Of a stretch of 64,000 nucleotides of DNA, positions 18,777 through 55,928 are shown piece after piece. A model generated the notes under the pieces. The model had not been told where the DNA came from. It saw only the letters and a program-made list of their open reading frames with translations, and searched no databases. How positions within the stretch are numbered: position 1 is the first letter of the stretch; each line of letters begins with the position of its first letter. Origin of the DNA: an uncultured Bacteroidia bacterium (lineage in GTDB: Bacteria; Bacteroidota; Bacteroidia; Bacteroidales; CAJPTX01). The position numbers were made by a program, and so were the translations under genes. Where the stretch lies: NCBI GenBank assembly GCA_963543925.1, contig CAUUCP010000006.1:1776-65775 (forward strand), given 5' to 3'.

Positions 18777-18789
18777 CATTTAGAGAATC

Positions 18790-36604: not shown

Positions 36605-38424
36605 TGAAGGATATTAAGCGTCTCCTCCGATATGTCCTGCCATACAAATGGCGGGCGATTGCCAATATCGTTTGCAATCTCCTCGGGGCGTTTTTCTCCC
36701 TATTCTCTCTCTCCTTGATGATCCCCTTTCTGGGGGTTCTCTTTGGAACGTTGCCGCTCGTAGATCAGTGTCCTGAGTTTCAGTTTGATTTGGATGCTGT
36801 TACGGGGATTATCTACTATAACATTAGTGAGATTATTCGAGAGAGTGGTCGAGGTTGGGCATTATTTGTGGTAATTGCCTTTGTGTCGTTCAACGCCTTG
36901 TTGAAGAATCTATTCAACTATCTCGCTTCGTGGAATTTAGCGCCGATCCGGTTGGGGATTGTCCGAGATATTCGAAACGAGCTTTTTCATAAAATATTGA
37001 ATCTCCCATTGGGGTATTACTCAGAAGAACGTAAGGGGGATATCATGAGTCGGATGTCTAACGACGTGGGAGAGATCGAATACTCCATTATGCGTTCGAT
37101 GGATATGCTCTTTAAGCAGCCGATTATTATCCTTGTGCACATTATCGGTTTGCTTATCGTGAGTGTGAAGCTGACGCTCTTTGTTTTCATACTGCTTCCC
37201 ATTTCAGGCTTTATTATCGGACGTATTGGTAAAAACTTAAAGCAAAGCTCCTCCTTGACACAGCAAAGTCTGGGGATGTTGTTTACTATTATTGAAGAAA
37301 CTCTAGGAGGGTTGCGGATTGTAAAGGCCTTTAATGCAGAAAAACGTACCTACGAGCGATTTAAGAAGGAGAATAACTATTATACCCGTCTGGCATTGTT
37401 TATCAATCGTAGACAAGACCTTGCGAGCCCCCTGAGTGAGTTCTTGGGAACGGCGGTTATGGGGGGCGTTTTGTGGTATGGCGGTAGTTTAGTCTTTGCG
37501 CCCGAGGAAGGTGGATTAAGCCCTGAGGCTTTGATCGGTTACATGGGGCTTTTTTATATGATTTTGAACCCTGCCAAATCCTTCTCATCTGCGTATTTTA
37601 GCCTTCTGAAAGGATTTGCTTCTGCCGAGCGAATAGATTCTGTGCTATTGGCACAAAACCCAATCAAGTCGCCAGAAAAGCCTCTTCCTGCTCCGATTTT
37701 CTCGCAAGAGATAGAGTATCGCGATGTCCATTTCTCCTACGATCAGCGGGAGATTCTGCATGGCGTCTCGCTGAAAATAAAGCGTGGGATGACGGTCGCA
37801 CTCGTCGGACAATCAGGGGCGGGAAAGACGACCTTCGTAGACTTATTACCCCGTTTTTACGATGTTACGGGGGGAGCAATTTTCTTGGATGGAGCTGATA
37901 TTCGAGAGTACAATGTCGAGGATTTACGAGCCCTGATGGGGAATGTTAATCAAGAGCCTATCTTGTTCAATGATACGTTTTACAACAATATCACCTTTGG
38001 CGTAGAACATGCCACGATGGAGGAGGTGCAGCATGCCGCAAAAATTGCCAATGCGCATGATTTCATCATGGAAACCGAACAAGGTTATGATACGAGAATC
38101 GGAGATCGGGGAGGGCGTCTCTCGGGGGGACAACGACAACGCTTGAGTATTGCGCGTGCGATTCTTAAAAATCCGCCGATTATGATCTTGGATGAGGCAA
38201 CCTCATCGCTAGATACTGCCTCGGAACGCTTGGTACAAGAGGCGTTGGAGCATCTTATGGAAAATAGAACCTCTATTGTGATTGCGCATCGATTATCTAC
38301 TATAAAGCGTGCAGATCTTATCTGTGTGATGGAAGAGGGACGTATTATCGAGATGGGGAAACATCAAGAACTCTTGGAGCGTGGAGAGGCTTATGCGCGT
38401 CTCTATAATATGCAGATCTGGTAG
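36604..38424 (+). CDS. ABC transporter permease/ATPase, MsbA-like exporter
   Basis: Six-TM domain then NBD: GQSGAGKTT, LSGGQRQRLSIARA, ILDEATSSLD. TAATG overlap with purB. Confidence 0.88.
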   Translation: MKDIKRLLRYVLPYKWRAIANIVCNLLGAFFSLFSLSLMIPFLGVLFGTLPLVDQCPEFQFDLDAVTGIIYYNISEIIRESGRGWALFVVIAFVSFNALLKNLFNYLASWNLAPIRLGIVRDIRNELFHKILNLPLGYYSEERKGDIMSRMSNDVGEIEYSIMRSMDMLFKQPIIILVHIIGLLIVSVKLTLFVFILLPISGFIIGRIGKNLKQSSSLTQQSLGMLFTIIEETLGGLRIVKAFNAEKRTYERFKKENNYYTRLALFINRRQDLASPLSEFLGTAVMGGVLWYGGSLVFAPEEGGLSPEALIGYMGLFYMILNPAKSFSSAYFSLLKGFASAERIDSVLLAQNPIKSPEKPLPAPIFSQEIEYRDVHFSYDQREILHGVSLKIKRGMTVALVGQSGAGKTTFVDLLPRFYDVTGGAIFLDGADIREYNVEDLRALMGNVNQEPILFNDTFYNNITFGVEHATMEEVQHAAKIANAHDFIMETEQGYDTRIGDRGGRLSGGQRQRLSIARAILKNPPIMILDEATSSLDTASERLVQEALEHLMENRTSIVIAHRLSTIKRADLICVMEEGRIIEMGKHQELLERGEAYARLYNMQIW

Positions 38425-38469
38425 CCGCAGGTCTAAGAGTCAAGACTCTGCCAGCTGGTAATATTTTCT

Positions 38470-38477
38470 TAACTTTG
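38470..38477 (+). promoter_or_regulatory. -7 box TAACTTTG
   Basis: 33 nt upstream of the first gene of the CheR/GAF/PP2C block. Confidence 0.5.
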
Positions 38478-38510
38478 TTTCCGTAGATTCTAGAGAGGTA
38501 GGACAAAATA

Positions 38511-39359
38511 TTGTTGGTGGTGGAAAATCCGGATGATTTGTCGCGCTTTGTGACGGCTCTTCGTGCCCATACGACGTATGATCTGAGTGATTACTCGGAT
38601 CGTTCGTTGCTACGCCGACTTTATAAAGTGCTCGAAGATGAGCGACTAACGCTAGATGAGCTTCTGGCACGTATCGCACAGGATGCAGCATACGGAGAGC
38701 ATATTGTACAGGCGATCACGGTCAACACCAGTGAGCTCTTTCGAGATCCCTCTGTATGGCTCTTGTTACGTTCTCGTATTTATCCGAGATTTAAGGCTCA
38801 AAACTATCTGAATATCTGGCATGCGGGTTGCTCTATGGGGCAGGAGGTTTATTCCAATCTGATGTTGCTCACCGAGCTCGGTCTTTATGAAAAGGCGAGG
38901 GTTTATGCCAGTGACATCAATATGAGGATTCTTGAGGCTGCACAGCTCGGGGAATATCGTTATCGGTTCAATCTGTCCTATCTTGACAATTTCGATCTGG
39001 TGATTAACACCAATCCCTTGAACTACGAAGAAAAGCTCTCTGTGCCCTATTCCAAGTATTTTGAAATTGACGAGGTTAAGGATTTGATTCGGATCAATGA
39101 ATCGCTGAGAAAAAAGCCTACATTCCGTGTCAATGATTTGGTTAAGGGGGTGAATCCCTTCTTTGTGCGTTACGATGTGATCTTTTGCCGTAACGTCTTG
39201 ATTTATTTCAACGCAGCCTTGCAGAATAAGCTCTTCGAGGTCTTCTATCGGAATCTCTATCCCGGAGGAATCCTTGTGCTAGGTGCTCATGAATCTATAT
39301 TGGGCTCGTGGGCGGATCGTTTTGAGAGGATTTCGCAGGTCTATGTGCGTAAGGATTAA
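38511..39359 (+). CDS. cheR: CheR-type protein-glutamate O-methyltransferase
   Basis: NTSELFRDP, IWHAGCSMGQEVYS (SAM-binding GxGxG-type), ASDINMRILEAA, VIFCRNVLIYF. Uses a TTG/GTG start; there is no nearby ATG. Confidence 0.85.
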   Translation: MLVVENPDDLSRFVTALRAHTTYDLSDYSDRSLLRRLYKVLEDERLTLDELLARIAQDAAYGEHIVQAITVNTSELFRDPSVWLLLRSRIYPRFKAQNYLNIWHAGCSMGQEVYSNLMLLTELGLYEKARVYASDINMRILEAAQLGEYRYRFNLSYLDNFDLVINTNPLNYEEKLSVPYSKYFEIDEVKDLIRINESLRKKPTFRVNDLVKGVNPFFVRYDVIFCRNVLIYFNAALQNKLFEVFYRNLYPGGILVLGAHESILGSWADRFERISQVYVRKD

Positions 39360-39363
39360 CGAA

Positions 39364-41295
39364 ATGAAAGAGTTCTTTTTACGTATTGTCAAGGCGTTGT
39401 ATGGGCGTTGGAGAGAGGTCAGATCGCGTGTCCTGACCATGGGGAGTCTCATTGTCTTCCTCGGCGTGTGTTTTTTTATCTTCGGACGTCTGGTACATAT
39501 GGAGTCTTACAAACAGTTGTCGCGAACGTTGGAGAGCTTTTCCCAGAAGTTCGCACAGACGCTTGAAATGCTAGATCTGGATGTGAAGCGGCTTGACTCT
39601 GCAAAGTATGAGGAACTCAGAATTTTGTTCCGAGACCCCATGTTTGGCAATACGGGCTATCCGTTTGTCTTACAGACGACGGGACAAATCAATTTCCATT
39701 TCTTCCGAGACGGGGACAGGCTTTCTAGAGAGGTCCTCGACCAGATGGCTTCTACACCAGGACGTCGCGGAAGAATCCGAATTAACTTCGGAACAACAGA
39801 AGAAATGGAGAGAGAAATTGTCTTCTGTTTTAGTCGCGATTTGGATTGCTTTCTCGCTATTGAGGTCTCGGACAAGGTCTTTGAGGCTACTTTGAATGGG
39901 CTTCGCATTTATAGCTGGTTACTCTTCTTGGCTGGATGTTTACTGGTCTGGTTCTTCTTTAATTATAATACGAGGAAGTCTGTGGCCTTTTATACGATCT
40001 TGCAGAAAAACTTGTCAGATTTGGCTGTCGGGATCTTGCCTCCTCCTTTCCCTACGGAGAAGGAAGAACGTCCTGAAATGGAGCTAATCGCGAAGAAGTT
40101 TAATCAAGTTATTGGAAATCTGGAGACAACAACTTCTTTTGTACAACGCATGGCTGATAACGATTTGACATCGGAGTATCAACCCTTAGGTCTGAGAGAT
40201 GAGTTGGGGAACACGCTTCTTGCATTGCGAGAGAATCTGCAAAAACAAGAGAGTGAAGCCGCACACATTAAAGAAGAAGAGCGTATACGAAGCTGGAGTA
40301 ATGAGGGATTGGCTGAGTTCGCAAAACTCTTGAGAGAGAATAGTAATGACATCTCGCAGTTGGCAGACATCGTATTGCAACGAATTGTCAATTATCTCGA
40401 TGCTACGCAGGGGGGACTCTTTATCGCAGAAATGCATGATAATGAGACTGTATTGCGTTTAGCCGCGGCCTTCGCTTACAATCGAAAGAAATATTTGGAG
40501 CAGGAACTACGTCTGGGCGAGGGCTTGGTGGGAACATGTGCTATCGAGCGTGAGATTGTACATATTGATGTCTTACCTCCCGAGTATTGTGACATCACGT
40601 CTGGGATTGGAAATGTGCCGCCAAAGGAATTGTTGATTGTGCCATTGAAAACCGATGATGCGCTACTGGGGGTATTGGAATTGGCTTCCTTAAAGGGCTT
40701 TGCGCCGTACATGGTCAATTTCGCACAGCGCCTCTCTGTGAGTATCGCGCAAACATTACAACAGGTACAGAGTACGCAGCGCACGGAAGAGCTTTTGCGA
40801 CAGTCACAAGAACAGCGGGAGGCGATGCGTTCGCAGGAAGAGGAAATGCGTCAGAATCTCGAGGAAATGCAAGCGACCCAAGAGGAGATGACGCGTAGAA
40901 CGCAAGAATTTGAAGTCTTGCAGCACGTGATCGACACATCACTCTTTTATGCAGAATTCTCAGAAAGTGGTAACTATTTACACGGCAATCCGCGTCTAGA
41001 GGATTATCTTCATCAGTTGGGATTTGCAGACTTCGCAACTCTTGATTTCTTCAAATTAATTCACGTGATCCAGAGTCAAGAAGGGCATTCCGAATCATTG
41101 GAGACGCTATGGAAGCAGATCGTAGGCGGGAGTGTGCGGACGCGCCTGCTCGCGATGAATGTCGCACAATCAGAGCTCCTCTATTGTTCTTTCTCCGTAT
41201 TGTCTCCCGATGGAGTGAATCGAGTTTATATGATAGCGCAGAATATCTCGTCCGTCGTGATGGATTCCATGTTAGCATACAACCAGAATTCGTAA
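39364..41295 (+). CDS. membrane sensor TM-periplasmic-TM-HAMP-GAF-coiled coil-PAS-like, no output domain (candidate methyl-accepting protein)
   Basis: TM1 LIVFLGVCFFIFG, TM2 [37 protein letters not shown]...GEGLVGTCAIEREIVHI, coil RSQEEEMRQNLEEMQATQEEM. Paralog of 1..2063. Confidence 0.8.
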   Translation: MKEFFLRIVKALYGRWREVRSRVLTMGSLIVFLGVCFFIFGRLVHMESYKQLSRTLESFSQKFAQTLEMLDLDVKRLDSAKYEELRILFRDPMFGNTGYPFVLQTTGQINFHFFRDGDRLSREVLDQMASTPGRRGRIRINFGTTEEMEREIVFCFSRDLDCFLAIEVSDKVFEATLNGLRIYSWLLFLAGCLLVWFFFNYNTRKSVAFYTILQKNLSDLAVGILPPPFPTEKEERPEMELIAKKFNQVIGNLETTTSFVQRMADNDLTSEYQPLGLRDELGNTLLALRENLQKQESEAAHIKEEERIRSWSNEGLAEFAKLLRENSNDISQLADIVLQRIVNYLDATQGGLFIAEMHDNETVLRLAAAFAYNRKKYLEQELRLGEGLVGTCAIEREIVHIDVLPPEYCDITSGIGNVPPKELLIVPLKTDDALLGVLELASLKGFAPYMVNFAQRLSVSIAQTLQQVQSTQRTEELLRQSQEQREAMRSQEEEMRQNLEEMQATQEEMTRRTQEFEVLQHVIDTSLFYAEFSESGNYLHGNPRLEDYLHQLGFADFATLDFFKLIHVIQSQEGHSESLETLWKQIVGGSVRTRLLAMNVAQSELLYCSFSVLSPDGVNRVYMIAQNISSVVMDSMLAYNQNS

Positions 41296-41296
41296 A

Positions 41297-42136
41297 ATGT
41301 ACGTTCCAGAATTTCAGGATCTAGGGATCAAGGAGACGCGAATGGTTGTTGCAGCGATTCGTGCAGGGCACAATGACGATTTTACGGATTTCAATCTCGG
41401 AATCTTGAGTCGCCGTTTTGCAATGGTGATGAATAGACTTGGAGTGCGTCAGGTTGATGGGTTATGCAATGTGCTCGCTTCGGGCGATGATGTGTTTTAT
41501 AACCGTTTCTTAGCAGAGTTGATCCCTCCAACGACCGAGCTCTTTCGTGATCCCTCCTTCTGGAAATTCCTGAAAGAGGAGGTGCTTCCCTTATTGTTGC
41601 GTCAATTTGGGGAGTTACGTGTGCTACAAGCTGCTTGTGGATCGGGCGAAGAGCTCTATTCGTTGTTGATACTTTTACATCTCCTCAAAATTCGAGAACA
41701 GGTAGAGGTCACATGTACGTATTGCTGTGAGCAAAATCTGTCGCAGATTCGCGGGGGGGGGATGCCAGTTAGGAGACGAGAGCTTGACGAGAATAATTTC
41801 CATGTGATCGAGGCGCAGGGGGAGTATGAACAATTTGTTTCCGCAGAGAATGAGTCTCCTGTATTTCGTCAAGAATTTTTAGAGGAGGTTCGTTTTTTCA
41901 GACAGACACCAGAGTTTAACTTGCAGAAAGAGGGGACGTTTCATCTTATCTTGTGTCGAAATCAGTTCCTCTATTTTAATCCTCAACTCGGGATTCGAAA
42001 TATGGAAGTGTTGTTCCGATCACTTGTCGTAGGGGGCGTTTTAGCGCTGGGAACAAAAGAGCACTTGGAAAGTTATCAGAATGGTAGTACATTTACAGTA
42101 CTAAACGGGGACGAGAGTCTTTATAGAAGGAAGTAG
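41297..42136 (+). CDS. divergent CheR-like methyltransferase
   Basis: TTELFRDPSFW, LQAACGSGEELYS, LILCRNQFLYFN. The motif order is as in CheR, but the central region has diverged. Confidence 0.72.
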   Translation: MYVPEFQDLGIKETRMVVAAIRAGHNDDFTDFNLGILSRRFAMVMNRLGVRQVDGLCNVLASGDDVFYNRFLAELIPPTTELFRDPSFWKFLKEEVLPLLLRQFGELRVLQAACGSGEELYSLLILLHLLKIREQVEVTCTYCCEQNLSQIRGGGMPVRRRELDENNFHVIEAQGEYEQFVSAENESPVFRQEFLEEVRFFRQTPEFNLQKEGTFHLILCRNQFLYFNPQLGIRNMEVLFRSLVVGGVLALGTKEHLESYQNGSTFTVLNGDESLYRRK

Positions 42137-42138
42137 TA

Positions 42139-42708
42139 GTGGCAACTCGTTACAAAGTGGTGGTTATTGGCGGTTCGGCTGGTAGTTTTCAGGTGGTGGT
42201 ACGCATCTTGCAATCGCTGCCCAGCACTTTTTCATTGCCAATTATCTTGTGTCTGCACCGTCTCAAGCACGTCCGGTCTGGTTTTGAGGAGGCTCTCTCT
42301 TTGCGATCTGCAATCCCCGTGATGGAGCCATTTGACAAGGAAAATATCCGGGCGAGAGTGGCTTATTTGGCTCCCTCCAACTATCATTTATTTGTCGAAT
42401 TGGGAAATCGCTTCTGTCTCTCCACAGAGGAGGTCGTAAATCATTCACGTCCGTCAATTGATTTAACCTTTTTCTCCGTGGCGCGTGTATATAGAGAACA
42501 TGCACTCGGTATCATCCTCTCGGGAGCGAATCGAGATGGCGCCATGGGGTTGGCGCGCTTAAAAAAGATGGGCGGTACAGCGCTTGTTCAGAATCCGCTC
42601 GAATGTGAGGTGAGGACTATGACCGAAGCCTCTTTACAATTGACGCCAGTCGATGGAGTACTCTCTACCGATGGGATTATTCAGTACCTGAAAGATTTGT
42701 GTGTGTAA
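42139..42708 (+). CDS. cheB: CheB methylesterase catalytic domain (no receiver domain)
   Basis: VVVIGGSAGSFQ (Ser), ILCLHR (His), SGANRDGAMG (Asp) in canonical order. Length is 189 aa. GTG start 2 nt after the cheR2 stop. Confidence 0.82.
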   Translation: MATRYKVVVIGGSAGSFQVVVRILQSLPSTFSLPIILCLHRLKHVRSGFEEALSLRSAIPVMEPFDKENIRARVAYLAPSNYHLFVELGNRFCLSTEEVVNHSRPSIDLTFFSVARVYREHALGIILSGANRDGAMGLARLKKMGGTALVQNPLECEVRTMTEASLQLTPVDGVLSTDGIIQYLKDLCV

Positions 42709-42711
42709 GTC

Positions 42712-43503
42712 ATGGGAAAGAGTGAAGTGAAGCGACTGCGTAGTTTGCGCCAATATCTGCTGATTAGCCTTTCTTTTCTCTTTAGTGGGGGGGTAATCTT
42801 GTTGTCTTTTAGACCAGAAGAGGGGTTGGCGATGCGCTATTGGGCTGTGGTGCTCTTGAGTATTGCGTTGGTGGCGGTCTTGGTATATCAGATTCGAGTG
42901 ATTCAGGGGGAGATTGAACGACGTGAGGAGGGGGAGGCTATTATCCAAAGCTTGTTGGGAGAAAAAGAGGAGTTGGAATATCAGTTACAACAATTGCAAG
43001 ACGCGCAGACTCAGAGTGTACAGGATACCAGAGATCGAGATCAGCAACTCTCTGATCTTGTCAATGCTGTGAGCGGAGAATCGCGTGATTCTTTCCTTGA
43101 TTCTTATTTCCGGCAGGTGGGCTATCATTGGGGGTTGATGCAAGGGCTCTTGTTCGAGGTGCAAGAGGATGAGGTGTATCGAGTAACGGCGCGTTATGCT
43201 TATTTTAGTTCTGCGGCAGATTTGGAGTTCCGAGTCGGAGAAACTCTTTTGGGGCAGGTGGTAAAAGACAAACAACCACTTTTCTTAGAAAACGTTGAGA
43301 GTGAGACTATTATCGTGGCCTCTGGAACAGGAAGTTCCAAACCATGTAGCTTGTATATGATCCCCGTTATGGCTGGTGGAGATGGAAAGTCTGCATTAGG
43401 GATCTTTGAATTGGCTTTTGTGAAAGAGTTGGACTTGGGCGCTCGGGATATGTTGTTGCGTTTTACCGATCGCATTGTCCAAGAGATTGAAAAGAGGTTC
43501 TAA
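42712..43503 (+). CDS. membrane-anchored coiled-coil GAF-domain protein
   Basis: Two TM helices, a coiled coil (EELEYQLQQLQDAQ), and a GAF-like C-terminus (VGETLLGQVVKDKQPLFLENV...IPVMAGG). Confidence 0.65.
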   Translation: MGKSEVKRLRSLRQYLLISLSFLFSGGVILLSFRPEEGLAMRYWAVVLLSIALVAVLVYQIRVIQGEIERREEGEAIIQSLLGEKEELEYQLQQLQDAQTQSVQDTRDRDQQLSDLVNAVSGESRDSFLDSYFRQVGYHWGLMQGLLFEVQEDEVYRVTARYAYFSSAADLEFRVGETLLGQVVKDKQPLFLENVESETIIVASGTGSSKPCSLYMIPVMAGGDGKSALGIFELAFVKELDLGARDMLLRFTDRIVQEIEKRF

Positions 43504-46133
43504 TGGATAAGGTTACGGTCTCCTCTGTGCTCAAGTTCTGGAAGTGGCATTTGAGATCTCGCGATATCGGGATCGCGATGCTGCTCTTTTGCGTCAGTAT
43601 CTTTTTGCTGGCGATGTGTTGGGTCTTGGCCGCCGCCACCCTTAACGGAGAATTCAGTTTCTCCACTCTCCTTTCATTGCATGAAAAACAGCCCTTGCTT
43701 TTCTTGATAGATCTTTTCCCGTTTGCTGTCGCGTTGGGATTTCTCTTTGTACAGTCGAGAAACGCCCAGCAGATTTATCTTTTAGAAAAACAAAATGCCG
43801 AGCAGAGGCTTAGTATTGAGGAAAAAGCGGATTTTGCAACGGCTATCGGAGATGGTAAGTACGACGCCTCCCTTGAGCTACAGGGGGGGGAAGATCGCCT
43901 AGGAACTTCGTTATTGCGCATGCGAGACAATCTCCTTGCTAATACGCAAAAGGAGAATGAACACTCTTGGGTGGCGCGAGGAAAGGAGGATATCGCGTAC
44001 GTTCTTCGTATGTACACCAATTTACAAGAGTTGGGGTATGAGGTCTTGAAGAAGCTGGTCGCTTACATTAATGTCGTGCAGGGGGGACTCTTCTTGTATG
44101 ATGAAGAGAAAGAACGTTTATTTGGTTTGGCAACCTATGCTTATAACAGAGAAAAGTTGAATCATCTCGAATTTGCACTAGGTGAGGGGCTTGTCGGGCA
44201 GTGTGCTTATGAGCGTGGTATCATTTATCGCACAGAGATCCCAGAGGACTATGTGACGATTACCTCTGGAGTCTTGGGAGATGCAAGACCCAAAAGTATT
44301 CTCCTCGTGCCCTTGATTACCGATGAACGATTACAGGGGGTTATTGAATTTGCTTCGATTCAGGAGGCGTTTAGCGAACGCGATATTCGTTTCTTGGAAG
44401 AGGTCGGAGAAACCATCGCTAGGGTGGTCTTCAACCTCCGAATTAGTCAAAAAACAGAAGCGCTGTTGCACGAGGCGCAACAGATGACGATCGAGCTCCG
44501 TGCGAATGAAGATCTTCTGCGTCAAAATGCAGAGGAAATGCAGAAAACGCATGAAGAGTTGGAACGTTCGAATATCCAACTTGAGGCTAAGATAAAGGAG
44601 GCTGAGAATGCTCAAAAACGTCTCCATTCTCTTCTGGAGAATGCGAGCGAGGTTATCACCATTTATAACAAGGAGCAAAATATTACCTACATCAGTCCAT
44701 CTGTTACTACGATCTTGGGGTATACGCCACAGGAGATGATGGATGGAAAGGATCGGGAACGTTTGACTCAGGAGGGGGTACGGATTTTGGATAAGATGTT
44801 TGCAAGTCTCATCTCTACCCCGCATGAAGCGGTAACATGCCAGTACATCTTTATGAAGAAGGATGGTGTGAAGGTCTTTATGGAGGTGACTGGGCGTAAT
44901 CTGTTGGAAGATCCTGCAATTCGTGGACTTATATTAAACTCTCGAGATATTACCGAACGACTCCGAGCAGAAAAAGAGGAACGCATGAAGAGCAAGATGC
45001 AATCCCTTTCGGAGAATTCGGTGGACATGATTATCCGTCTGAATCCCGACGGGCAGTTCTTCTATGCCAATCCTATTGTGGCTCGTTTCTTTGGAGTCCC
45101 AGTGACTGAGGTGGTTGATAGAAATCTTTTCGAAGTTAATATGCCCGAGATCCTCCGGGAGAGTATCGCACATTCTATACAAACTGTAGTCTCTACGCAA
45201 GCAAAATGGGAACAGGAGGTCTCTATTGAGCGTGAGAATGAACGTTTAATTCTGAAATTGTTAGCTATTCCAGAATTTGATGAAGGGCAGTTGGAGACGA
45301 TTCTTTTAGTAGGGCATGATGTGACCGAAGCTAAGAGGATTGAGAACGAAATTCAGGAGAAGAGTCATAAGATTCAGGAAAGTATTAATTATGCTAAGAG
45401 GATTCAGTCGTCCATTCTGCCCGATATGAAGTTGATACAACAGTACTTCCCAAAATCATTTATGTATTATCGACCACGGGATGTGGTCAGTGGCGATTTC
45501 CCTTGGATCTTTGTAAAAGGGGATAATATCTTTATTGCGGCCGTTGACTGTACGGGGCACGGAGTGCCAGGAGCGCTTTTGTCGTTTATTGGCTTCTTTA
45601 CGCTTAATAACGTTGTCGATCACGATGCCTCTTATAGCGCAGGGAAGGTTCTCGATTTGTTGCATGCAGGGGTTCGTAAAACTCTGCGTCAGGAACGAGC
45701 GGATGCCGATGCGCGAGATGGGATGGATATCGCTCTTTGTAAGATCGATTTGAAGCACATGCATATGGAGTATGCGGGGGCACATCGTCCTCTCTATTTT
45801 GTCCGTGGAAATACGCTGGAGGAATACAAGGGCGATCGGAGAGCAATCGGAGGAATTCCGAATGCTCGTAAGCCAGAAGGAGAGTTTACAAATTATAGCT
45901 TGGATTTAGAGGCAGGGGATAGAATCTTCTTTTTCTCCGATGGTTTACCAGACCAACAAGGGGGAGAGAGTGGACAGAAAAAGTACAGCCCACAGCATAT
46001 TCGGGAAGTATTAGTTGAACAGCGAGAACTCTCGATGGCTCGTTTAGCGCAATTTATCGAAGAAGATTTCTTGCGTCATCGGGGGCTTTGGAAACAAATG
46101 GATGATGTCTTGCTGATAGGTATAGAGTTCTAA
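43503..46133 (+). CDS. TM-GAF-coiled coil-PAS-PAS-PP2C (SpoIIE/RsbU/SiaA-like) Ser/Thr phosphatase
   Basis: GAF GEGLVGQCAYERGIIY, coil LRQNAEEMQKTHEEL, two PAS-like modules, and a PP2C domain with VSGDFPW...AAVDCTGHGVPGALLS...FFFSDGLPDQ. TAATG overlap with the upstream gene. Confidence 0.85.
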   Translation: MDKVTVSSVLKFWKWHLRSRDIGIAMLLFCVSIFLLAMCWVLAAATLNGEFSFSTLLSLHEKQPLLFLIDLFPFAVALGFLFVQSRNAQQIYLLEKQNAEQRLSIEEKADFATAIGDGKYDASLELQGGEDRLGTSLLRMRDNLLANTQKENEHSWVARGKEDIAYVLRMYTNLQELGYEVLKKLVAYINVVQGGLFLYDEEKERLFGLATYAYNREKLNHLEFALGEGLVGQCAYERGIIYRTEIPEDYVTITSGVLGDARPKSILLVPLITDERLQGVIEFASIQEAFSERDIRFLEEVGETIARVVFNLRISQKTEALLHEAQQMTIELRANEDLLRQNAEEMQKTHEELERSNIQLEAKIKEAENAQKRLHSLLENASEVITIYNKEQNITYISPSVTTILGYTPQEMMDGKDRERLTQEGVRILDKMFASLISTPHEAVTCQYIFMKKDGVKVFMEVTGRNLLEDPAIRGLILNSRDITERLRAEKEERMKSKMQSLSENSVDMIIRLNPDGQFFYANPIVARFFGVPVTEVVDRNLFEVNMPEILRESIAHSIQTVVSTQAKWEQEVSIERENERLILKLLAIPEFDEGQLETILLVGHDVTEAKRIENEIQEKSHKIQESINYAKRIQSSILPDMKLIQQYFPKSFMYYRPRDVVSGDFPWIFVKGDNIFIAAVDCTGHGVPGALLSFIGFFTLNNVVDHDASYSAGKVLDLLHAGVRKTLRQERADADARDGMDIALCKIDLKHMHMEYAGAHRPLYFVRGNTLEEYKGDRRAIGGIPNARKPEGEFTNYSLDLEAGDRIFFFSDGLPDQQGGESGQKKYSPQHIREVLVEQRELSMARLAQFIEEDFLRHRGLWKQMDDVLLIGIEF

Positions 46134-46164
46134 TTACCTTTGATGCGGAAAAAGAGGAGTGGTC

Positions 46165-46740
46165 ATGTCGCAAGTGAATACAGATAACTATCTTGAGTTC
46201 GTAGAGCAAGAGTATCACAAACTCGGAGGTGGAGAAGTTATGCTCGCCTATGAAGGTGAGGTCTCGCAGTCGTTGATTCTCGCTTTAACAGGCTTGATTG
46301 AGTTGGAAATTGTTAAAGCTGGTGAGGAAGCAAAGTTGCAAAAACAGCTTTTTCATACACTAGTTGAAGGGTTGCAGAATATCATGAAACATGCCGATCC
46401 GCTGGAGGGTGAGAGATCCTCTATGTTCAGTGGGCGTGGTGTGCTAATGTTGGTGCGTACACAGGAGGCTTATCATGTCCTCGTTGGTAACATAGTCTTG
46501 GGTTCGCGCGTTGCTGATATGCGGGGGAGACTTGATGCCTTGATTGCAGCGAATGATGAAGAGCTTAAGGCGATGCACCGGGCTAGTTTGAGAGGAAATG
46601 AAATATCGGACAAGGGAGGGGCTGGGCTTGGACTCATTGATATGGCGAGGAAGGCAAGTTCGATAGCCTATCTCTTTGAGAAAATAAATGATGAACGTCA
46701 GTTCTATTTGTTACAGGTGAAATTATTGCGTAAGATATAA
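46165..46740 (+). CDS. SiaB/RsbW-like GHKL Ser/Thr protein kinase
   Basis: N-box VEGLQNIMKHA and G-box DKGGAGLGLIDMA. About 190 aa and placed between the PP2C and DUF1987 genes. The alternative GTG start at 46159 is also possible. Confidence 0.7.
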   Translation: MSQVNTDNYLEFVEQEYHKLGGGEVMLAYEGEVSQSLILALTGLIELEIVKAGEEAKLQKQLFHTLVEGLQNIMKHADPLEGERSSMFSGRGVLMLVRTQEAYHVLVGNIVLGSRVADMRGRLDALIAANDEELKAMHRASLRGNEISDKGGAGLGLIDMARKASSIAYLFEKINDERQFYLLQVKLLRKI

Positions 46741-46759
46741 ACGAAAGGAGTAGGAGAAA

Positions 46760-47143
46760 ATGGAGGTTATCAAAATTCAGGGTACGGACGATACCCCAAC
46801 CGTGACGTTGGAGGCAGATAAGGGACTGTTTGAGATCTCGGGTCGCTCTTTGCCAGAAGACGTAACGGCCTTTTATGCCCCCATATTAAGTTGGTTGGAT
46901 GATTATGCAGGAAGTCCAAATCCGAAGACGGTCTTTACGTTTAAGCTTGTCTATTTCAATACGGCGAGTTCGAAACTTTTGCTCGATATCTTAGTGAAAC
47001 TTGAAAAGATCCACGAGGATGGGCATGACGTCTTGGTGAAGTGGTGTTATCCAGAAGACGACGAGGATATGAAGGACGCGGGAGAAGAGTATTCCGAGAT
47101 TGTGGATATCCCATTCGAACAAGTTTCTTATGATATTGCTTAG
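46760..47143 (+). CDS. SiaC-like DUF1987 regulatory phosphoprotein
   Basis: TPTVTLEADKGLFEISGRSLPEDVTAFYAPILSWLDDY...FKLVYFNTASSKLLLDIL matches the DUF1987 pattern as recalled. Length is 127 aa. Confidence 0.75.
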   Translation: MEVIKIQGTDDTPTVTLEADKGLFEISGRSLPEDVTAFYAPILSWLDDYAGSPNPKTVFTFKLVYFNTASSKLLLDILVKLEKIHEDGHDVLVKWCYPEDDEDMKDAGEEYSEIVDIPFEQVSYDIA

Positions 47144-47223
47144 CCGTCGTCCTTGTGTTCGTGTCTAGCTTTTTCCAGTAGGTGTCCTATCTAATCGCGG
47201 CTTTTATTTGAGAGTCTTATTGC

Positions 47224-50200
47224 ATGAGTGAGGAAATATTAAAAGCGCTAATGCAACTTTTTGCCATTATTGCCAAGCAGGACGAAGGGCTGGGCGATAG
47301 TGAGCGGGAGTATGTAGAGGTGTTCCTCAAACAACAGATTAGCGCAGAAGCGGTAGCGGAGTATCTCGCGTTGTTTGATGGTTATGTCAATGACGATAAG
47401 GGGGGGAATAGTAAACTTACCTCGGTGAGGGATTCTGTACGAATTCTCGGAATCTGCAAAAAAATCAATAAGACCTTGACGCAGAAGCAGAAGGTGGTCG
47501 TGTTGGTACGTTTGTTTGAACTTGTGAGTGTTGAGGGCAAGTTTAGTGAACAACGAATGGCGATTATCAATACTGTCTCTGAAGTCTTTAAAGTAGAGCC
47601 CGAGGAGTTTGAGGATATTGAGGCTTTTGTCTTAAGCAAGGAGTTGACGGCTCTTACCCGTTCCACGATATTGCTCATTCATGCTGCCAAACACGAGACT
47701 CATAGTGATGAGGAAGGTGCGGTGTGTAAAGAAATTCATGTAGAGTCGCTGGATAGACCACTTGCCATTTTGCGTATCCGTTCGGAGGATCTTTATTTTC
47801 TCCGTTATGTCGGGAGTGAAGATCTCTATCTCAATGGTTTACCGATTCATAATCGAAGGATTTACCTCTTCGCCAGTGGAAGTAGTATAAAGCTACCTAA
47901 GGGGAAGCCGATTTATTATACCGATGTCGTTTCCCACTTCATGGCAGATCTTAGCCTGACGCCGATCTCGTACGTGGTGGATGATATCTCCTATAAGTTT
48001 CCAAATGGTGCTCTAGGTCTTCGGAATATCTCTTTCTCGGAAGAACATGGTCGTCTCGTTGGTATTATGGGGGCGAGCGGAGCAGGGAAGACTACGCTAT
48101 TGAATGTTTTGTCTGGCTCGTCTATGCCGTCTGGGGGGCAGGTCAGGATCAATGGACTTGATTTGTACAAGGATGCGGATAGGCTCGAAGGAACTATCGG
48201 GGTAATTCCACAAGACGACCTCTTGATAGAGGAATTGACGGTATTCCAGAATTTGTATTACAGTGCGAAGCTTTGCTTTCGGGATAAAGAAGAGAAGGAA
48301 CTTTGCGAGCTTGTAGATAAAACATTGGCAAGTCTTGGGCTTCTAGAGCGTAAGGATTTGAAGGTAGGTTCGCCTCTCAATAAGATGATCTCTGGGGGGC
48401 AGCGTAAACGTTTGAATATCGCCTTGGAGTTGATTCGAGAACCATCGATCCTCTTTGTCGATGAACCAACTTCGGGGTTGTCATCACGAGACTCCGAGAA
48501 TGTTATGGACTTACTCCGAGAGTTGACTCTGAAGGGGAAACTCATTTTTGTCGTGATACACCAGCCGTCGTCGGAGATCTATAAGATGTTTGACGATATG
48601 CTTATCTTGGATACGGGCGGTTATCTCGTCTACTGGGGTAATCCTGTAGAAGCCGTGATGTATTTTAAGAAGGCTGATGCGCAGGTGAATAGCGATGTAG
48701 GGGAGTGTCCTACGTGTGGAAATGTTAATCCCGAGTTGATATTCAATATCATCGAGTCGCACGTGGTGGATGAGTTCGGACGTTACACCCCTAATCGGAA
48801 GGTACAGCCGCAACGCTGGGAAGAGATCTTTCGAGAACAAAAGCCTAAGGTGCACGTGATGGAGGAGTCTGTCCCTCCACCAAAGTCATTGAATATCCCG
48901 TCCAAACTCAAACAGTTCTTGATTTATACTGCACGTGATTTCCGCTCGAAAATTAGCAATACGCAGTATATCGTGTTGAATCTGTTGGAGACGCCTGTAC
49001 TTGCGTTCATCTTGGCGTATGTGATACGGTATATTCCAGATCCGAATTCATCGGTATATATCTTTAGAGAGAATGAGAATATCCCGATCTATATTTTTAT
49101 GTCGCTGATCGTTGCGCTTTTTATTGGGCTTACGGTGAGCGCAGAAGAAATTTTCAAAGACCGGAAGATTCTTAAGCGAGAGCAGTACCTCAATCTGAGT
49201 AGGACATCTTACCTCTTTAGTAAGATCTTTATCCTATTAGTTTTGTCTGCGATACAAACATTGTCGTTTGTCCTGATTGCGAATAGTATCCTTAGCTTGA
49301 GAGGGTTGAATCTTGAATATTGGTTGATTCTTTTCTCTACCTCGGTTTGTGCTAATCTTATAGGGTTAAATATTTCGGCTACGTTCAATAGTGCGGTCAC
49401 TATTTATATTGTTATCCCATTATTGATGATCCCGATGATGGTGCTCTCTGGTGCAATGTTCTCTTTTGAAAAGTTGAACCGAGCGGTAGGAAGTTTTGAC
49501 AGAGTCCCCTTAATCGCAGAGTTCATGCCTACGAAGTGGGGGTACGAGTCTCTGGTCGTCTTACAGTTTAAGGATAATGAGTTCCAGCGTCATTTCTATG
49601 AACTAGAGAAGGCTGAGCGAAATGCCAATTACAAGACGGTTTACCTCTTGCCAGAGTTACAGAAGCGAATCGAATTTTGTATTGAGAACTGGGATAAGCG
49701 CGACTCGCTGGAGATCGAGCTAAAGTTGCGAGATGCGCTAGGGGTTTTGCATCGGAGTTTGAAACGAGAGCATGAGGTGGAGGCGGCAGAGATACCGTAT
49801 ACCTGTCTCTCTGGCTTGAATTACGATAGTGTGACCGAGGAGGCACTCTACGAAACGGTAGGTTATATAGATCAGTTGCAGGAAAAGTATGCCAAGATCT
49901 TCGGTGAAAAGAATAAGCAGCGGGATGCTATCGTATCTCACTTGATAACGACCAATCCTCAATTGTACGAGGCTAAGCGTGCTGCTTATCATAATGAAAG
50001 TGTGGCGGATCTTGCTCAGAAGGTATTTGAAAAAAATAAGATTCTTCAATTCAAGGATCAGTTGGTACAACAGTATGATCCTGTCTATCGAGACCCGATC
50101 CCTACTTCTGCTTTTGATATCGGATCGCACTTTCTTGCTCCTCGAAAGCATTTTATGGGACATTATTTCGATACCTATTGGTTCGATTTGGTCATCCTTT

Positions 50201-50298
50201 GGCTAATGAGTGCTTTCCTGTACTTGTCTCTACATTTCGAACTGTTAAGACGTATAGGCACTCTTTTTGCCTTTATACAGCGCTTGGTGAAACGATAA
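47224..50298 (+). CDS. ABC-G/ABC-2 type exporter fused to an N-terminal TerB-like domain and an uncharacterised beta-rich domain
   Basis: N-terminal 140 aa are helical and TerB-like (LFAIIAKQDEGLGDSEREYV...). NBD: GASGAGKTTLLNVLSG, ISGGQRKRLNIALEL, LFVDEPTSGLS. Six-TM ABC-2 domain at about aa 590-760, then a soluble tail of about 250 aa and a final TM helix. Confidence 0.8.
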   Translation: MSEEILKALMQLFAIIAKQDEGLGDSEREYVEVFLKQQISAEAVAEYLALFDGYVNDDKGGNSKLTSVRDSVRILGICKKINKTLTQKQKVVVLVRLFELVSVEGKFSEQRMAIINTVSEVFKVEPEEFEDIEAFVLSKELTALTRSTILLIHAAKHETHSDEEGAVCKEIHVESLDRPLAILRIRSEDLYFLRYVGSEDLYLNGLPIHNRRIYLFASGSSIKLPKGKPIYYTDVVSHFMADLSLTPISYVVDDISYKFPNGALGLRNISFSEEHGRLVGIMGASGAGKTTLLNVLSGSSMPSGGQVRINGLDLYKDADRLEGTIGVIPQDDLLIEELTVFQNLYYSAKLCFRDKEEKELCELVDKTLASLGLLERKDLKVGSPLNKMISGGQRKRLNIALELIREPSILFVDEPTSGLSSRDSENVMDLLRELTLKGKLIFVVIHQPSSEIYKMFDDMLILDTGGYLVYWGNPVEAVMYFKKADAQVNSDVGECPTCGNVNPELIFNIIESHVVDEFGRYTPNRKVQPQRWEEIFREQKPKVHVMEESVPPPKSLNIPSKLKQFLIYTARDFRSKISNTQYIVLNLLETPVLAFILAYVIRYIPDPNSSVYIFRENENIPIYIFMSLIVALFIGLTVSAEEIFKDRKILKREQYLNLSRTSYLFSKIFILLVLSAIQTLSFVLIANSILSLRGLNLEYWLILFSTSVCANLIGLNISATFNSAVTIYIVIPLLMIPMMVLSGAMFSFEKLNRAVGSFDRVPLIAEFMPTKWGYESLVVLQFKDNEFQRHFYELEKAERNANYKTVYLLPELQKRIEFCIENWDKRDSLEIELKLRDALGVLHRSLKREHEVEAAEIPYTCLSGLNYDSVTEEALYETVGYIDQLQEKYAKIFGEKNKQRDAIVSHLITTNPQLYEAKRAAYHNESVADLAQKVFEKNKILQFKDQLVQQYDPVYRDPIPTSAFDIGSHFLAPRKHFMGHYFDTYWFDLVILWLMSAFLYLSLHFELLRRIGTLFAFIQRLVKR

Positions 50299-50351
50299 AT
50301 AAGTCTAGGGAATTGTCTCATCTACCTAGCAGTCTAAATAGATTTTACACT

Positions 50352-51278
50352 ATGAGAGTAGAAAGGGTTATGCTGATGGCTTTCGTACTAGCAGGTTTCC
50401 TGCTGGGGGGATGCCAGTGTTCGAGAACGGGACCAGATGTCTCACAAGAGTTTAATATTCCTGATTCTCTAAAAGACCAACCAGAAGTGGAATTGTCGGA
50501 AACGGTGACAGAAAAGATGGTGGAGAATATCTCTTCGCCAGTAGAGACCGCCGCCTTAATAAAGAGGCTTAAAGTGCCCTTTAATAAAGATTTTTTGATT
50601 TCCACGGATGTCGCAGACCACTTGAATACGAACTTTGAGAAGGCGCTTGGATTGGGGCTTTACGGGACGGACTTGGGGTATTTGAACATGTATGAGAAGA
50701 CGTCTTCTGTCTTGAATTACATCTCTTCTGTGAAATCGTTGGCGGATGGAATACAGGTCGGGCAATTCTTTGATTTCTCGACGCTTAAGCGTCTTGCTTC
50801 TAACAATGAGAATTTAGACTCCTTGATCTTTATTTCACAACAAAGCTATAATAAGATAGATCGTTATCTTCGTTCTACGAACCGTGCTTCGCTGAGTGTG
50901 GTGATTATTACGGGGGTATGGATTGAGGGGATGTATCTCTCTACGAGGGTGTCGCAGATTACTAAGAATCGTCGAATGGAGGAAAGTGTAGCTGATCAGA
51001 AGGTCGTGTTAGCAACACTGATCCCGATTCTTCGCGTGTATGAACGAGACCAAGATATCAAAGCCCTTGCAGATCGCTTGGAAAAATTGCGTGTTTACTA
51101 CGATGATATCCGGATTACCTATGAACAAGGAACGCCTGAAACGAAAGTCGTAGATGGAAAGTTGGTGGTAGAACAAAAGGATAAGCAAATTGTAGATTAC
51201 ACACCAGAACTTATGCAGCAGTTGATGAGCGAGATTGTTGCCATTCGAACCGAACTAATAACTTACAAGGGTAACTAA
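50352..51278 (+). CDS. hypothetical helical lipoprotein
   Basis: Lipobox FLLGGC at ATG 50352. The upstream ORF extension overlaps the ABC gene and is rejected. Confidence 0.6.
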   Translation: MRVERVMLMAFVLAGFLLGGCQCSRTGPDVSQEFNIPDSLKDQPEVELSETVTEKMVENISSPVETAALIKRLKVPFNKDFLISTDVADHLNTNFEKALGLGLYGTDLGYLNMYEKTSSVLNYISSVKSLADGIQVGQFFDFSTLKRLASNNENLDSLIFISQQSYNKIDRYLRSTNRASLSVVIITGVWIEGMYLSTRVSQITKNRRMEESVADQKVVLATLIPILRVYERDQDIKALADRLEKLRVYYDDIRITYEQGTPETKVVDGKLVVEQKDKQIVDYTPELMQQLMSEIVAIRTELITYKGN

Positions 51279-51282
51279 CATT

Positions 51283-51726
51283 ATGAAACGCGTTCTATTA
51301 GTGGCAATCGTGCTACTCTCTTTAATATTTGCACCAGGGTTGGCTTTCGGACAATCAGAAGACGAGCTTTTGGATATTTGTGGTGCTTTGGCGGGGTCAG
51401 AGGCTACCTATCTTCGGGATTTCAAGATCCGTTTGGATGCAGCTGATCCAGCTCCTATTCAGCGTTATCCAGTGGTTTTGAAAAAGGGAAATCGCTATCG
51501 TTTTTCTATTGCTAGTTCCAAGGATTTGGAAGGTATTATGAAGTTAGAACTTTTTGATAGCAACCGACTCATGGCGACGACAAACAATCCCGCTACGGGG
51601 GCAGATTACCCGAGTTTCGATTATATCTGTACTAAGACAGGAGCTTATCACCTTTTCTTCTCATTTAAGGATGGAAAGAGTGGTATGGGGGTTGGTGTTC
51701 TTTCGCTTTTAGACGGCGAGAATTGA
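51283..51726 (+). CDS. small secreted hypothetical protein
   Basis: Signal peptide ...APGLAFGQ, beta-rich, 147 aa. Starts 4 nt after the upstream gene. Confidence 0.6.
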   Translation: MKRVLLVAIVLLSLIFAPGLAFGQSEDELLDICGALAGSEATYLRDFKIRLDAADPAPIQRYPVVLKKGNRYRFSIASSKDLEGIMKLELFDSNRLMATTNNPATGADYPSFDYICTKTGAYHLFFSFKDGKSGMGVGVLSLLDGEN

Positions 51727-51751
51727 CCTTGATTTTTATTATTCTACTCCA

Positions 51752-51782
51752 AGCCCTCCGCTTTTAGCGGGGGGCTTTTTTG
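51752..51782 (+). terminator. rho-independent terminator closing the 38.5-51.7 kb block
   Basis: AGCCCTCCGC tttta GCGGGGGGCT followed by T6. Confidence 0.75.
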
Positions 51783-51899
51783 TGGCTTGTTACGCCGTTA
51801 CAATAAGCGAGTTGCGAACGATATGCTATTTAGATAGGATGGGAACATTGCGCAAACACCTCGTATCTTCCCACCCCTCTTTTGGAGTCATTTTTTTTG

Positions 51900-53200: not shown

Positions 53201-53247
53201 TAAGAGATTGATAAGGAGAGACTTTGTTCGTAAAATGGTATAAGGTT

Positions 53248-53895: not shown

Positions 53896-53914
53896 CCCCT
53901 AACACTTTATCACA

Positions 53915-54484: not shown

Positions 54485-54501
54485 CGTGCAATTTACAATA
54501 A

Positions 54502-54783
54502 ATGAGGAGTTTCATACTCCTATTTTGTATCGCCGCTGGTCTCTTGTTCTTGAATGCTTGTAGTGGAGATAAGGAAATAGAGAAGCTGCGAAAGAATAAA
54601 GAAGAGAAAGAACAGAGACAGAATGAGCAGTGGGAGCGCTTACAATCCCTTAATGAGACGAATAGTAGTGACAGTGCTGTCTTTAGTGCAGATAATGGCA
54701 TCTCTGTTACATGTAAATATTCTTCGGGTATACTGCTCGTATCATCTACTAAGGGGTGGATATTTGAAGGTTCAAAATCTTAA
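54502..54783 (+). CDS. short paralog-like lipoprotein with about 30-aa charged helix
   Basis: Lipobox FLNAC followed by SGDKEIEKLRKNKEEKEQRQNEQWERL. The ending WIFEGSKS echoes WTYEGTKQ. Confidence 0.55.
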   Translation: MRSFILLFCIAAGLLFLNACSGDKEIEKLRKNKEEKEQRQNEQWERLQSLNETNSSDSAVFSADNGISVTCKYSSGILLVSSTKGWIFEGSKS

Positions 54784-54900
54784 CCCCTGTTCATGAGCTA
54801 GAAAGTTCATGCCGAACGAAATAATGGAAAGCGTTTTCAAAAAGGACGTTCTAAGATAGGCGTCCCAGCAGGATAATATTAACTTAATGCAGGTAGAATA

Positions 54901-55855: not shown

Positions 55856-55928
55856 ATATTTGCGCTTCGGTATGGTTTTTGTGCCCACTCTTTATCACTA
55901 ATATGCGACTAATTCGTAACTTATTGGG

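Follow-up and report, generated by a model that had tools for sequence, protein, structure and literature searches.

Methylation by CheR and CheB is the textbook mechanism of adaptation in chemotaxis, nearly always discussed together with methyl-accepting chemotaxis proteins (MCPs) and CheA. The operon described here shows these enzymes in another setting. It consists of eleven genes on the + strand of a 64,000-nucleotide stretch (hereafter the window) of contig CAUUCP010000006.1, from an uncultured Bacteroidia bacterium, and combines CheR and CheB enzymes that look active with a Ser/Thr partner switch and an exporter, in a phylum whose members glide and do not swim. Two described systems come closest. 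The SiaABCD network has been characterised in Pseudomonas aeruginosa (PMC8457831, PMC7647112), and the authors of the SiaC-SiaD structure have proposed that DUF1987 proteins modulate the product of the adjacent gene (PMC8457831). In Bacillus cereus, RsbK, a sensor kinase of CHASE3-HAMP-GAF architecture, governs the PP2C phosphatase RsbY and the RsbV/RsbW/sigmaB partner switch. Its signalling helix, located behind the GAF domain, is methylated by RsbM, an orphan enzyme of the CheR type for which no cognate esterase is known (PMC4574943). There is, in our estimate, an even chance that the Bacteroidota operon is organised around a SiaA/SiaB/SiaC threonine-phosphorylation switch that is tuned by CheR/CheB working on a post-GAF helix and that acts on the exporter. 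Its features are the following.

38470-38477, + strand: TAACTTTG, a Bacteroidota-type -7 promoter-like box, intergenic, upstream of CheR1
38511-39359, + strand: CheR1, a protein-glutamate O-methyltransferase (Pfam CheR 1.6e-34, CheR_N 5.2e-5; PDB 5FTW 7e-23)
39364-41295, + strand: output-less membrane sensor of 643 residues, with a transmembrane segment, a periplasmic region, a second transmembrane segment, a HAMP-like region, a GAF domain, a helix bearing Glu pairs and a PAS-like C-terminus (GAF_2 7.1e-13)
40834-40890, + strand: candidate methyl-accepting helix of the sensor, QEEEMRQNLEEMQATQEEM (translation and orthologue alignment)
41297-42136, + strand: CheR2, a second, more divergent CheR (Pfam CheR 2.9e-19; PDB 5FTW 8.3e-13)
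42139-42708, + strand: receiver-less CheB methylesterase/deamidase of 189 residues (CheB_methylest 1.7e-43; PDB 3SFT 9.6e-22)
42712-43503, + strand: membrane-anchored GAF protein of 263 residues, with two transmembrane segments, an acidic linker and a GAF domain (GAF_2 2.7e-5, a weak match)
43503-46133, + strand: SiaA-like PP2C phosphatase, with two transmembrane segments, a HAMP-like region, a GAF domain, a Glu-pair helix, two PAS domains and a SpoIIE domain (Pfam; SpoIIE 8.3e-19)
44505-44561, + strand: candidate methyl-accepting helix of SiaA, NEDLLRQNAEEMQKTHEEL (family consensus NEEELRQNAEEMRATQEEL)
46135-46142, + strand: TACCTTTG, a second promoter-like box (TAnnTTTG), inside the 25-nt gap from the SiaA stop to the SiaB start
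46159-46740, + strand: SiaB-family protein kinase, DUF6272 (DUF6272 3.9e-30; PDB 6KKO_A 5.5e-8)
46760-47143, + strand: SiaC (DUF1987), phosphoprotein and switch protein (Pfam SiaC 2.7e-41; PDB 6KKO/6KKP/7E6G 2e-15)
47224-50298, + strand: ABC-G (White-type) exporter, extended by a module at its cytoplasmic N-terminus and by a further segment at its C-terminus (ABC_tran 1.1e-30, ABC2_membrane 1.3e-23, TerB 5e-9; TIGR00955 3.8e-72)
47230-47913, + strand: N-terminal module of the exporter, a TerB-like helical bundle (residues 3-137) and an FHA-like beta-sandwich (149-230) (AlphaFold2 and Foldseek)
50352-51278, + strand: lipoprotein of 308 residues with a signal peptide ending LGGC, always after the exporter
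51283-51726, + strand: small secreted protein P147 of 147 residues with a signal peptide (from the sequence)
51751-51777, + strand: intrinsic terminator-like hairpin and T-run, with a 12-pair stem containing 8 G-C pairs

The locus resembles the P. aeruginosa network in its PP2C phosphatase, its SiaB-family kinase, its SiaC protein with Thr68 and the order of the three genes, and in the role proposed for SiaC, which would regulate the protein encoded by the adjoining gene. In contrast, the SiaD cyclase is missing, and the neighbour is an ABC-G exporter with a TerB/FHA-like module or, elsewhere, a hybrid kinase. The N-terminus of the window SiaA is built as GAF-helix-PAS-PAS and is not the Pseudomonas sensor part, and CheR, CheB, the membrane GAF protein and accessory sensors are added to the Sia set. 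With RsbK/RsbM, the locus shares a CheR-type gene adjoining a non-MCP sensor of HAMP-GAF-helix type (4 nt apart here; the HAMP domain is recognised in the Tenuifilum orthologue and in a paralogue within the window) and signalling by way of a PP2C phosphatase and a partner switch. However, RsbK is a hybrid histidine kinase (HK-CA-REC, REC being a receiver domain) and RsbY a separate REC-PP2C protein, whereas here the sensor is output-less and the PP2C domain is fused in SiaA. Unlike the orphan RsbM, the enzymes comprise two CheR and a dedicated CheB (or CheD and CheB), the switch is of the Sia type, the exporter is the likely target, and helix methylation is suggested by sequence resemblance only. 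Chemosensory pathways of alternative function, such as Wsp, have in common with the locus intact CheR/CheB active sites, sensors with dCache or periplasmic regions and HAMP domains, and Glu pairs at heptad spacing. They differ from it in that neither the window nor the conserved cluster holds CheA, CheW, CheY or an MCP hairpin, in that CheB here lacks a receiver domain, and in that the output would be threonine phosphorylation, not His-Asp phosphotransfer.

Our literature search found no link of CheR/CheB to SiaABC, nor of SiaC to an ABC exporter, and turned up the RsbM/RsbK precedent. The initial annotation knew of no characterised methylation-adapted partner switch, a statement that gives way to this precedent (PMC4574943). 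What is new here is the combination of a dedicated CheB, which brings reversibility, with a Sia-type switch and an exporter; a partner switch modulated by methylation was already known from RsbM/RsbK.

The conservation of the operon was followed by scanning one genome per GTDB species with the window CheB. Relatives were found in at least 519 genomes; the best 80, all Bacteroidales, were analysed, and the eleven window proteins served as tblastn/blastp queries for cluster content. All eleven genes, in the window order, are present in 51 of these 80 species-level genomes, most of the others being cut by contig ends or frameshifts. Tenuifilum thalassicum, whose CheB is 66% identical, has all eleven genes arranged as in the window, amid flanking genes that are unrelated. 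In Fulvivirga maritima (Cytophagales), the cluster comprises the sensor, one CheR, CheB, GAF, SiaA, SiaB, SiaC and TerB-ABC genes, followed by a 299-residue and a 143-residue gene, and the module thus spans two classes of Bacteroidota. Gaps between genes are short throughout, with medians across loci of 5 nt for CheR2-CheB, 6 for CheB-GAF, 6 for GAF-SiaA and 4 for lipoprotein-P147. Chance juxtaposition was rejected, since the order is conserved amid different flanking genes, and there is little doubt that the block is a functional unit. The gene neighbourhood therefore bears out the operon-like block of the initial annotation, the order being co-conserved in the 51 Bacteroidales genomes, in Tenuifilum and in Fulvivirga.

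The composition of the cluster varies around a constant core. Sixteen of the 51 complete clusters lack the 643-residue sensor and have CheR2 directly behind CheR1; the sensor is thus optional. Two CheR genes with intact catalytic residues occur in nearly all clusters. A sister variant (loci L028, L051 and L071) has one or more sensors, CheB, GAF, SiaA, SiaB and SiaC, then a PAS-HisKA-HATPase-REC hybrid kinase; the exporter trio is absent, and no CheR is found in the contig (none within 19 kb). In L028 (6897-18234), the sensor is of the dCache-HAMP-GAF-helix-PAS type and is preceded by CheD. CheD is an MCP deamidase. At the other extreme, a metagenome-assembled genome labelled Paludibacter (L077) has only CheR-CheR-CheB-GAF (6776-9901), then glycosyltransferases. 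CheB and the small membrane GAF protein are thus common to all variants, and SiaABC nearly so. The hybrid kinase located 3' of SiaC in the L028-type operon implies that SiaC can target a two-component kinase, and the exchangeable nature of the gene after siaC fits the proposal that DUF1987 proteins regulate their neighbours (PMC8457831).

The PP2C phosphatase, the kinase and the DUF1987 protein very probably form a Sia-type switch, as judged by family models and gene order. The NCBIfam model prot_phos_SiaA matches the SiaA-like protein (9.7e-50, 170 bits) over residues 611-874, i.e., the PP2C part only; the score lies under the equivalog cut-off of 700 because the N-terminus differs. SiaB_fam_kinase yields 129.9 bits against a cut-off of 85, and the SiaC model 89 bits, under its equivalog cut-off of 150. 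Thr68 of the window SiaC, within an NT[AS]S motif, aligns opposite the Thr of the LNTSS motif of P. aeruginosa SiaC, the known phosphorylation site. The order siaA-siaB-siaC is maintained. No GGDEF domain or SiaD cyclase was found in any scanned open reading frame (ORF) of the cluster or window, and the ABC-G exporter follows siaC instead. The domain assignments of the initial annotation were upheld by the Pfam profiles (CheR, CheB, GAF, SpoIIE/PP2C, the kinase as DUF6272, and DUF1987). The trio, which had been left as an anonymous partner switch, turns out to correspond to SiaA/SiaB/SiaC of P. aeruginosa, minus SiaD.

CheR1, CheR2 and CheB look active, to judge from their intact catalytic residues. 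CheR1, which starts at a non-ATG codon (TTG/GTG at 38511-38520; its orthologues are 279 residues long), retains the catalytic Arg (ELFRDP), the Tyr (LIYF) and the S-adenosylmethionine motif. CheR2 retains the Arg (ELFRDP) and the Tyr (FLYF). In CheB, the Ser (GGSAGS), His (CLH) and Asp (NRDG) align to the catalytic triad of 3SFT. The window CheB has 3676 homologues, of which the best 120 are all about 186 residues long and consist of the esterase domain alone. A family that is uniformly receiver-less has no input from CheA, and any feedback on CheB would have to come from the conformation of its substrate.

The small membrane GAF protein always comes after CheB, being located directly 3' of it in 75 loci (median gap 6 nt). 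Its GAF domain is clearer in the L028 orthologue (GAF_2 3.5e-12). The linker is acidic, and its sequence is not conserved among the 80 aligned orthologues; in Fulvivirga it is D/S/N-rich. The coil of this 263-residue protein was considered as a specific methylation site and rejected because it is not conserved. The protein is proposed to be an adaptor or hub.

Candidate substrates of the methylating enzymes were sought by aligning 53 sensors, 72 SiaA proteins and 80 small GAF proteins, all from cluster loci. In the sensors and in SiaA, the most conserved stretch is the helix located directly after the GAF domain. The sensor consensus is QEEEMRQNxEE[LM]QATQEE, with 15 of 19 positions identical in 49-53 of the 53 orthologues, and in SiaA the segment LRQNAEEM is retained in 68-72 of 72. 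The helix is invariant between sensors sharing only 33% overall identity, and is kept from Bacteroidales to Cytophagales, Fulvivirga included. Its Glu pairs are found at i, i+7 and i+14, and also at i+21 in most orthologues, around a core EE-x-x-A-T. This core resembles the site ASSIEELSAT of a true Bacteroidales MCP (from L077), and the classical MCP methylation consensus is similar to it. Among the three GAF proteins of the cluster, only the sensor and SiaA bear the conserved Glu-pair helix. The post-GAF helix of these two proteins is, on this resemblance, the best substrate candidate, although the likelihood that it is the site falls somewhat short of even. GAF/helix proteins are the most plausible CheR/CheB substrates among the proteins considered, and the pairing of the same sensor/CheB/GAF/Sia core with CheD in the sister variant was counted in their favour. 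The initial annotation had viewed the GAF/coil proteins as the only plausible substrates; the helices of the sensor and SiaA are here the most plausible ones, and the count of three coil proteins fails, as the 263-residue protein has a non-conserved linker.

A paralogue of the sensor is encoded 37 kb away from the operon, immediately 5' of rmlA/rmlB-like sugar-nucleotide genes.

33-2063, + strand: unlinked paralogous output-less sensor, with dCache_1, HAMP, GAF, the same Glu-pair helix (1650-1706) and a weak PAS match (Pfam, motif scan)

Receptor-like paralogues thus occur in several copies in this genome, much as MCPs do in genomes generally. In the window sensor of the operon, Pfam recognises the GAF domain only, HAMP and the C-terminal PAS being detected in the Tenuifilum orthologue. 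Relaxed-threshold Pfam searches of the sensor periplasmic and C-terminal parts, the SiaA N-terminus and the exporter linker gave no match.

The exporter is of the ABC-G type with a fused nucleotide-binding and transmembrane domain (NBD-TMD), also matching ABC2_membrane_7. AlphaFold2 modelling of its first 262 residues from a 48-sequence alignment is confident (predicted local distance difference test, pLDDT, 90.1; predicted template-modelling score, pTM, 0.84). The beta domain retrieves nearly only FHA domains from the PDB by Foldseek (5YYX, 1G6G, 4JON and 6HC1; probability 0.9-1.0, E 0.03-0.5, template-modelling score about 0.45, target-normalised), the matches being MEK1, Rad53 FHA1, CEP170, KIF1A and Bdellovibrio DgcB. 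The helical bundle matches 2H5N and 2OU3. FHA is a phosphothreonine-reader fold. Rv1747 of Mycobacterium tuberculosis is an ABC-G exporter with N-terminal FHA domains that is regulated by Ser/Thr phosphorylation. The two exporters are alike in having an ABC-G NBD-TMD behind a cytoplasmic module of FHA or FHA-like fold in a context of Ser/Thr phospho-signalling. They differ in that the Bacteroidota protein has one FHA-like domain, lacking clear phosphothreonine-binding residues and preceded by a TerB-like bundle, and in that its presumed regulator is the SiaC switch and not a Hanks kinase.

After the ABC-2 membrane domain, the exporter carries an extension of ~230 residues (~791-1024; 49594-50298) without family matches; it ends hydrophobic and may form a further transmembrane helix. 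On one long contig (L088, 10001-14518), a TerB-ABC exporter gene, fragmented by frameshifts, accompanies a 144-residue gene in surroundings free of Sia and Che genes, so that exporter and switch are not strictly linked. The lipoprotein has 1747 homologues, all unnamed, and its AlphaFold2 model (pLDDT 78.6) gave no credible PDB match by Foldseek. P147 lies directly 3' of it in 59 loci (median gap 4 nt). Pfam, NCBIfam and PDB sequence searches with the lipoprotein and P147 returned nothing credible.

From the computed gene content, conservation of the module, catalytic residues, Thr68 of SiaC, conserved helix and exporter N-terminal fold, we infer a set of enzyme-substrate and protein-protein relations. 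The SiaA-like phosphatase and the SiaB-like kinase would set the phosphorylation of SiaC Thr68, SiaB adding the phosphate and SiaA removing it. SiaC would then control the protein encoded next to it, i.e., the exporter here, the hybrid histidine kinase in the sister lineage and SiaD in Pseudomonas. Control of the exporter by SiaC is slightly favoured. Input would reach the switch through the GAF and PAS domains of SiaA itself and through the optional output-less sensors (periplasmic or dCache region, HAMP, GAF, helix, PAS). CheR1 and CheR2 would methylate the helix glutamates and CheB (or CheD) would demethylate or deamidate them, thereby setting gain or adaptation in the phosphatase, in analogy to RsbM on RsbK, with CheB rendering the modification reversible. 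That CheR and CheB act on cluster-encoded proteins is rather probable. The membrane GAF protein may tether the enzymes to the sensor complex, or form a bridge to it, via GAF-GAF contacts. At the output end, one form of SiaC would bind the TerB/FHA-like module of the exporter and gate transport, while the lipoprotein and the secreted protein would handle the substrate. The fullest version of this scheme is put forward tentatively: a CheA- and MCP-independent methylation adaptation, in which a new class of methyl-accepting receptors (sensor domain-HAMP-GAF-helix-PAS, with several paralogues per genome), together with SiaA, would be reversibly modified by CheR/CheB to tune SiaB/SiaC, the phospho-state of SiaC being read by the FHA-like/TerB module of the exporter.

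Several observations weigh against this scheme. A profile built from the three window helices, searched against 1.84 billion representative proteins, matches 3414 protein clusters at E<=1e-3 and 890 at E<=1e-10. The proteins bear up to 9 copies of the motif, and the named members are all Bacteroidota. Among 48 sampled from the best matches, 42 have PAS, 40 GAF and 4 SpoIIE domains, mostly arranged as sensor-(HAMP)-GAF-[helix-PAS]n and lacking an output domain; no description of this GAF-[helix-PAS]n repeat unit was found. Hidden Markov models built from the loci detected no fused CheR or CheB domain in any of the 150 top-scoring proteins with the helix. CheB-CheR fusion kinases may carry similar heptads (EELQSTNEEL). 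CheR and CheB are also absent within 10 kb in the two contexts inspected, L085 and L086. In the latter, the GAF-[helix-PAS]9 protein P0121 of Chondrinema litorale (1989 residues) adjoins a small kinase. The former (10001-18817), a metagenome contig, encodes Y_Y_Y-PAS-SpoIIE, SiaB, SiaC, TPR-SpoIIE and a further SiaC. This Sia-type locus, with its two phosphatases and its pair of SiaC genes, has no Che genes in its surroundings; one of the proteins of the contig falls in the same 90% cluster as a SpoIIE-family phosphatase of Eisenibacter elegans. Since many proteins with no CheR/CheB nearby carry the helix, it may be a general structural signalling linker. Furthermore, the Glu pairs of the helix are invariant, and alternation between Glu and Gln, a typical trait of MCP sites, is essentially absent from them, save at one SiaA position (43 Glu, 23 Gln). 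On the exporter, the Pfam FHA model is negative, and the Arg/His residues that canonically contact phosphothreonine cannot be made out: Ser187 and Asn204-Gly205 are conserved, and a clear Gly-Arg or His is not seen. The domain is therefore called FHA-like only. The box at 46135 could be an internal promoter for siaB, siaC and the exporter, which would then be transcribed separately. Finally, L077 encodes a true MCP (97-1452; MCPsignal 8.1e-28) 5.3 kb upstream of its CheR-CheR-CheB-GAF module, with no SiaA or sensor nearby.

This MCP speaks for an alternative explanation, in which CheR and CheB serve canonical MCPs, with or without CheA/CheW, elsewhere in the genome, and their adjacency to the Sia genes reflects co-regulation or history; MCPs have, moreover, been reported in Bacteroidetes (PMC7390727). 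The L077 protein has multiple transmembrane segments and a short cytoplasmic domain, CheA and CheW are absent from its 20.7-kb contig, and a metagenome scan with it returned one distant, uninformative locus. In the window, Pfam found no CheA, CheW, CheY or MCP signalling domain (PF00015) in 53 ORFs (the 11 of the operon and 42 others), as the initial annotation had stated for the 64 kb. A search of 1.6 Mb around 92 loci, with hand-written query sequences, yielded one MCP and no CheW-like match. The gene order and the 1-6 nt junctions or overlaps are preserved across two classes of Bacteroidota, and the uniformly receiver-less CheB is without CheA input. This explanation is judged unlikely.

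A further possibility, given a still lower probability, is that the true methyl-accepting hub is the small membrane GAF protein, its linker or GAF domain being modified and regulating SiaA and the sensors via GAF heteromers. It is the sole non-enzyme component in every variant, including the L077 minimal module and the CheD variant, it stands behind CheB in the 75 loci mentioned above, and its linker is Glu-rich in many orthologues. However, the linker has no conserved motif and almost no Glu in Fulvivirga, the Glu-pair helix is absent from the L077, L028 and L002 orthologues, and CheR normally recognises a defined helical site. Modification of another cluster protein (at acidic segments in SiaC, in SiaB or in the TerB/FHA region of the exporter), or a CheB acting as a one-way maturation deamidase with no adaptation, is improbable. 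In favour, CheB has no receiver domain for feedback, and deamidation may be enough by itself, to judge from the CheD variant, which has no CheR within 19 kb. Against it, nearly all clusters carry two catalytically intact CheR genes, and an MCP-like conserved site was not found in SiaB or SiaC, in the N-terminal part of the exporter or in the remaining proteins of the Fulvivirga cluster.

The layout of the operon is compact. The eleven ORFs extend over 38511-51726, and the box at 38470 and the terminal hairpin of the initial annotation were both recovered. CheR1 (stop 39359) and the sensor (start 39364) are separated by 4 nt, the sensor (stop 41295) and CheR2 (start 41297) by 1 nt, CheR2 (stop 42136) and CheB (start 42139) by 2 nt, and CheB (stop 42708) and the membrane GAF gene (start 42712) by 3 nt; the latter overlaps the SiaA-like gene by TAATG at 43503. 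The gaps 3' of the SiaA-like gene are, in order, 25, 19, 80, 53 and 4 nt. The tight junctions and the overlap reported initially thus hold. The hairpin at 51751-51777 is the sole strong terminator within 38-52 kb. The TAnnTTTG pattern occurs 32 times in the whole window against 30.5 expected, i.e., with no enrichment, and the box at 38470 therefore counts as positional evidence only. The sigma-70 promoter model does not apply to Bacteroidota, and a scan with it gave fewer sites than shuffled controls. The G+C content is 0.42-0.47 across 36001-56000 of the window versus about 0.49-0.54 in most of the remainder, and this low-G+C stretch reaches past the operon on either side.

In closer relatives, the genes upstream of the cluster are as in the window. 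Downstream, a serpin gene (L003/L004) takes the place occupied in the window by an insertion sequence (IS) transposase.

52058-53086, - strand: IS-type DDE transposase (DUF772 and DDE_Tnp_1), just past the operon terminator

A recent insertion or rearrangement seems to have taken place at the 3' border of the operon. Beyond it, two adjacent ORFs (53224-53895 and 53915-54484, + strand; 223 and 189 residues) gave Pfam matches only under the cut-off, common to both (CAF1A acidic region, PFF1_TM), which hints at charged stretches of low complexity. Elsewhere in the window, the only receiver domain is that of a REC-PglZ (PorX-like) protein (12638-14197, + strand), and a protein with a C-terminal sorting domain of the type IX secretion system (T9SS) is encoded at 24757-26781 (+ strand). 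Both are consistent with a T9SS-bearing member of the Bacteroidota.

The operon is widespread, with CheB relatives in those 519 or more species-level genomes and conservation from Bacteroidales to Cytophagales, and cultured carriers of the cluster, Tenuifilum thalassicum (CP041345.1) and Fulvivirga maritima (CP089980.1), make the system experimentally tractable. If the Glu-pair helix is the substrate, a large family of GAF/PAS sensors would join the methyl-accepting proteins, many genes annotated as "orphan chemotaxis" genes in Bacteroidota would be explained, and SiaC-type switches would gain new kinds of targets, namely an ABC exporter and a histidine kinase. Should methylation adaptation in these bacteria indeed proceed independently of CheA and MCPs, it would be coupled to Ser/Thr signalling and export, and not to His-Asp signalling and motility.

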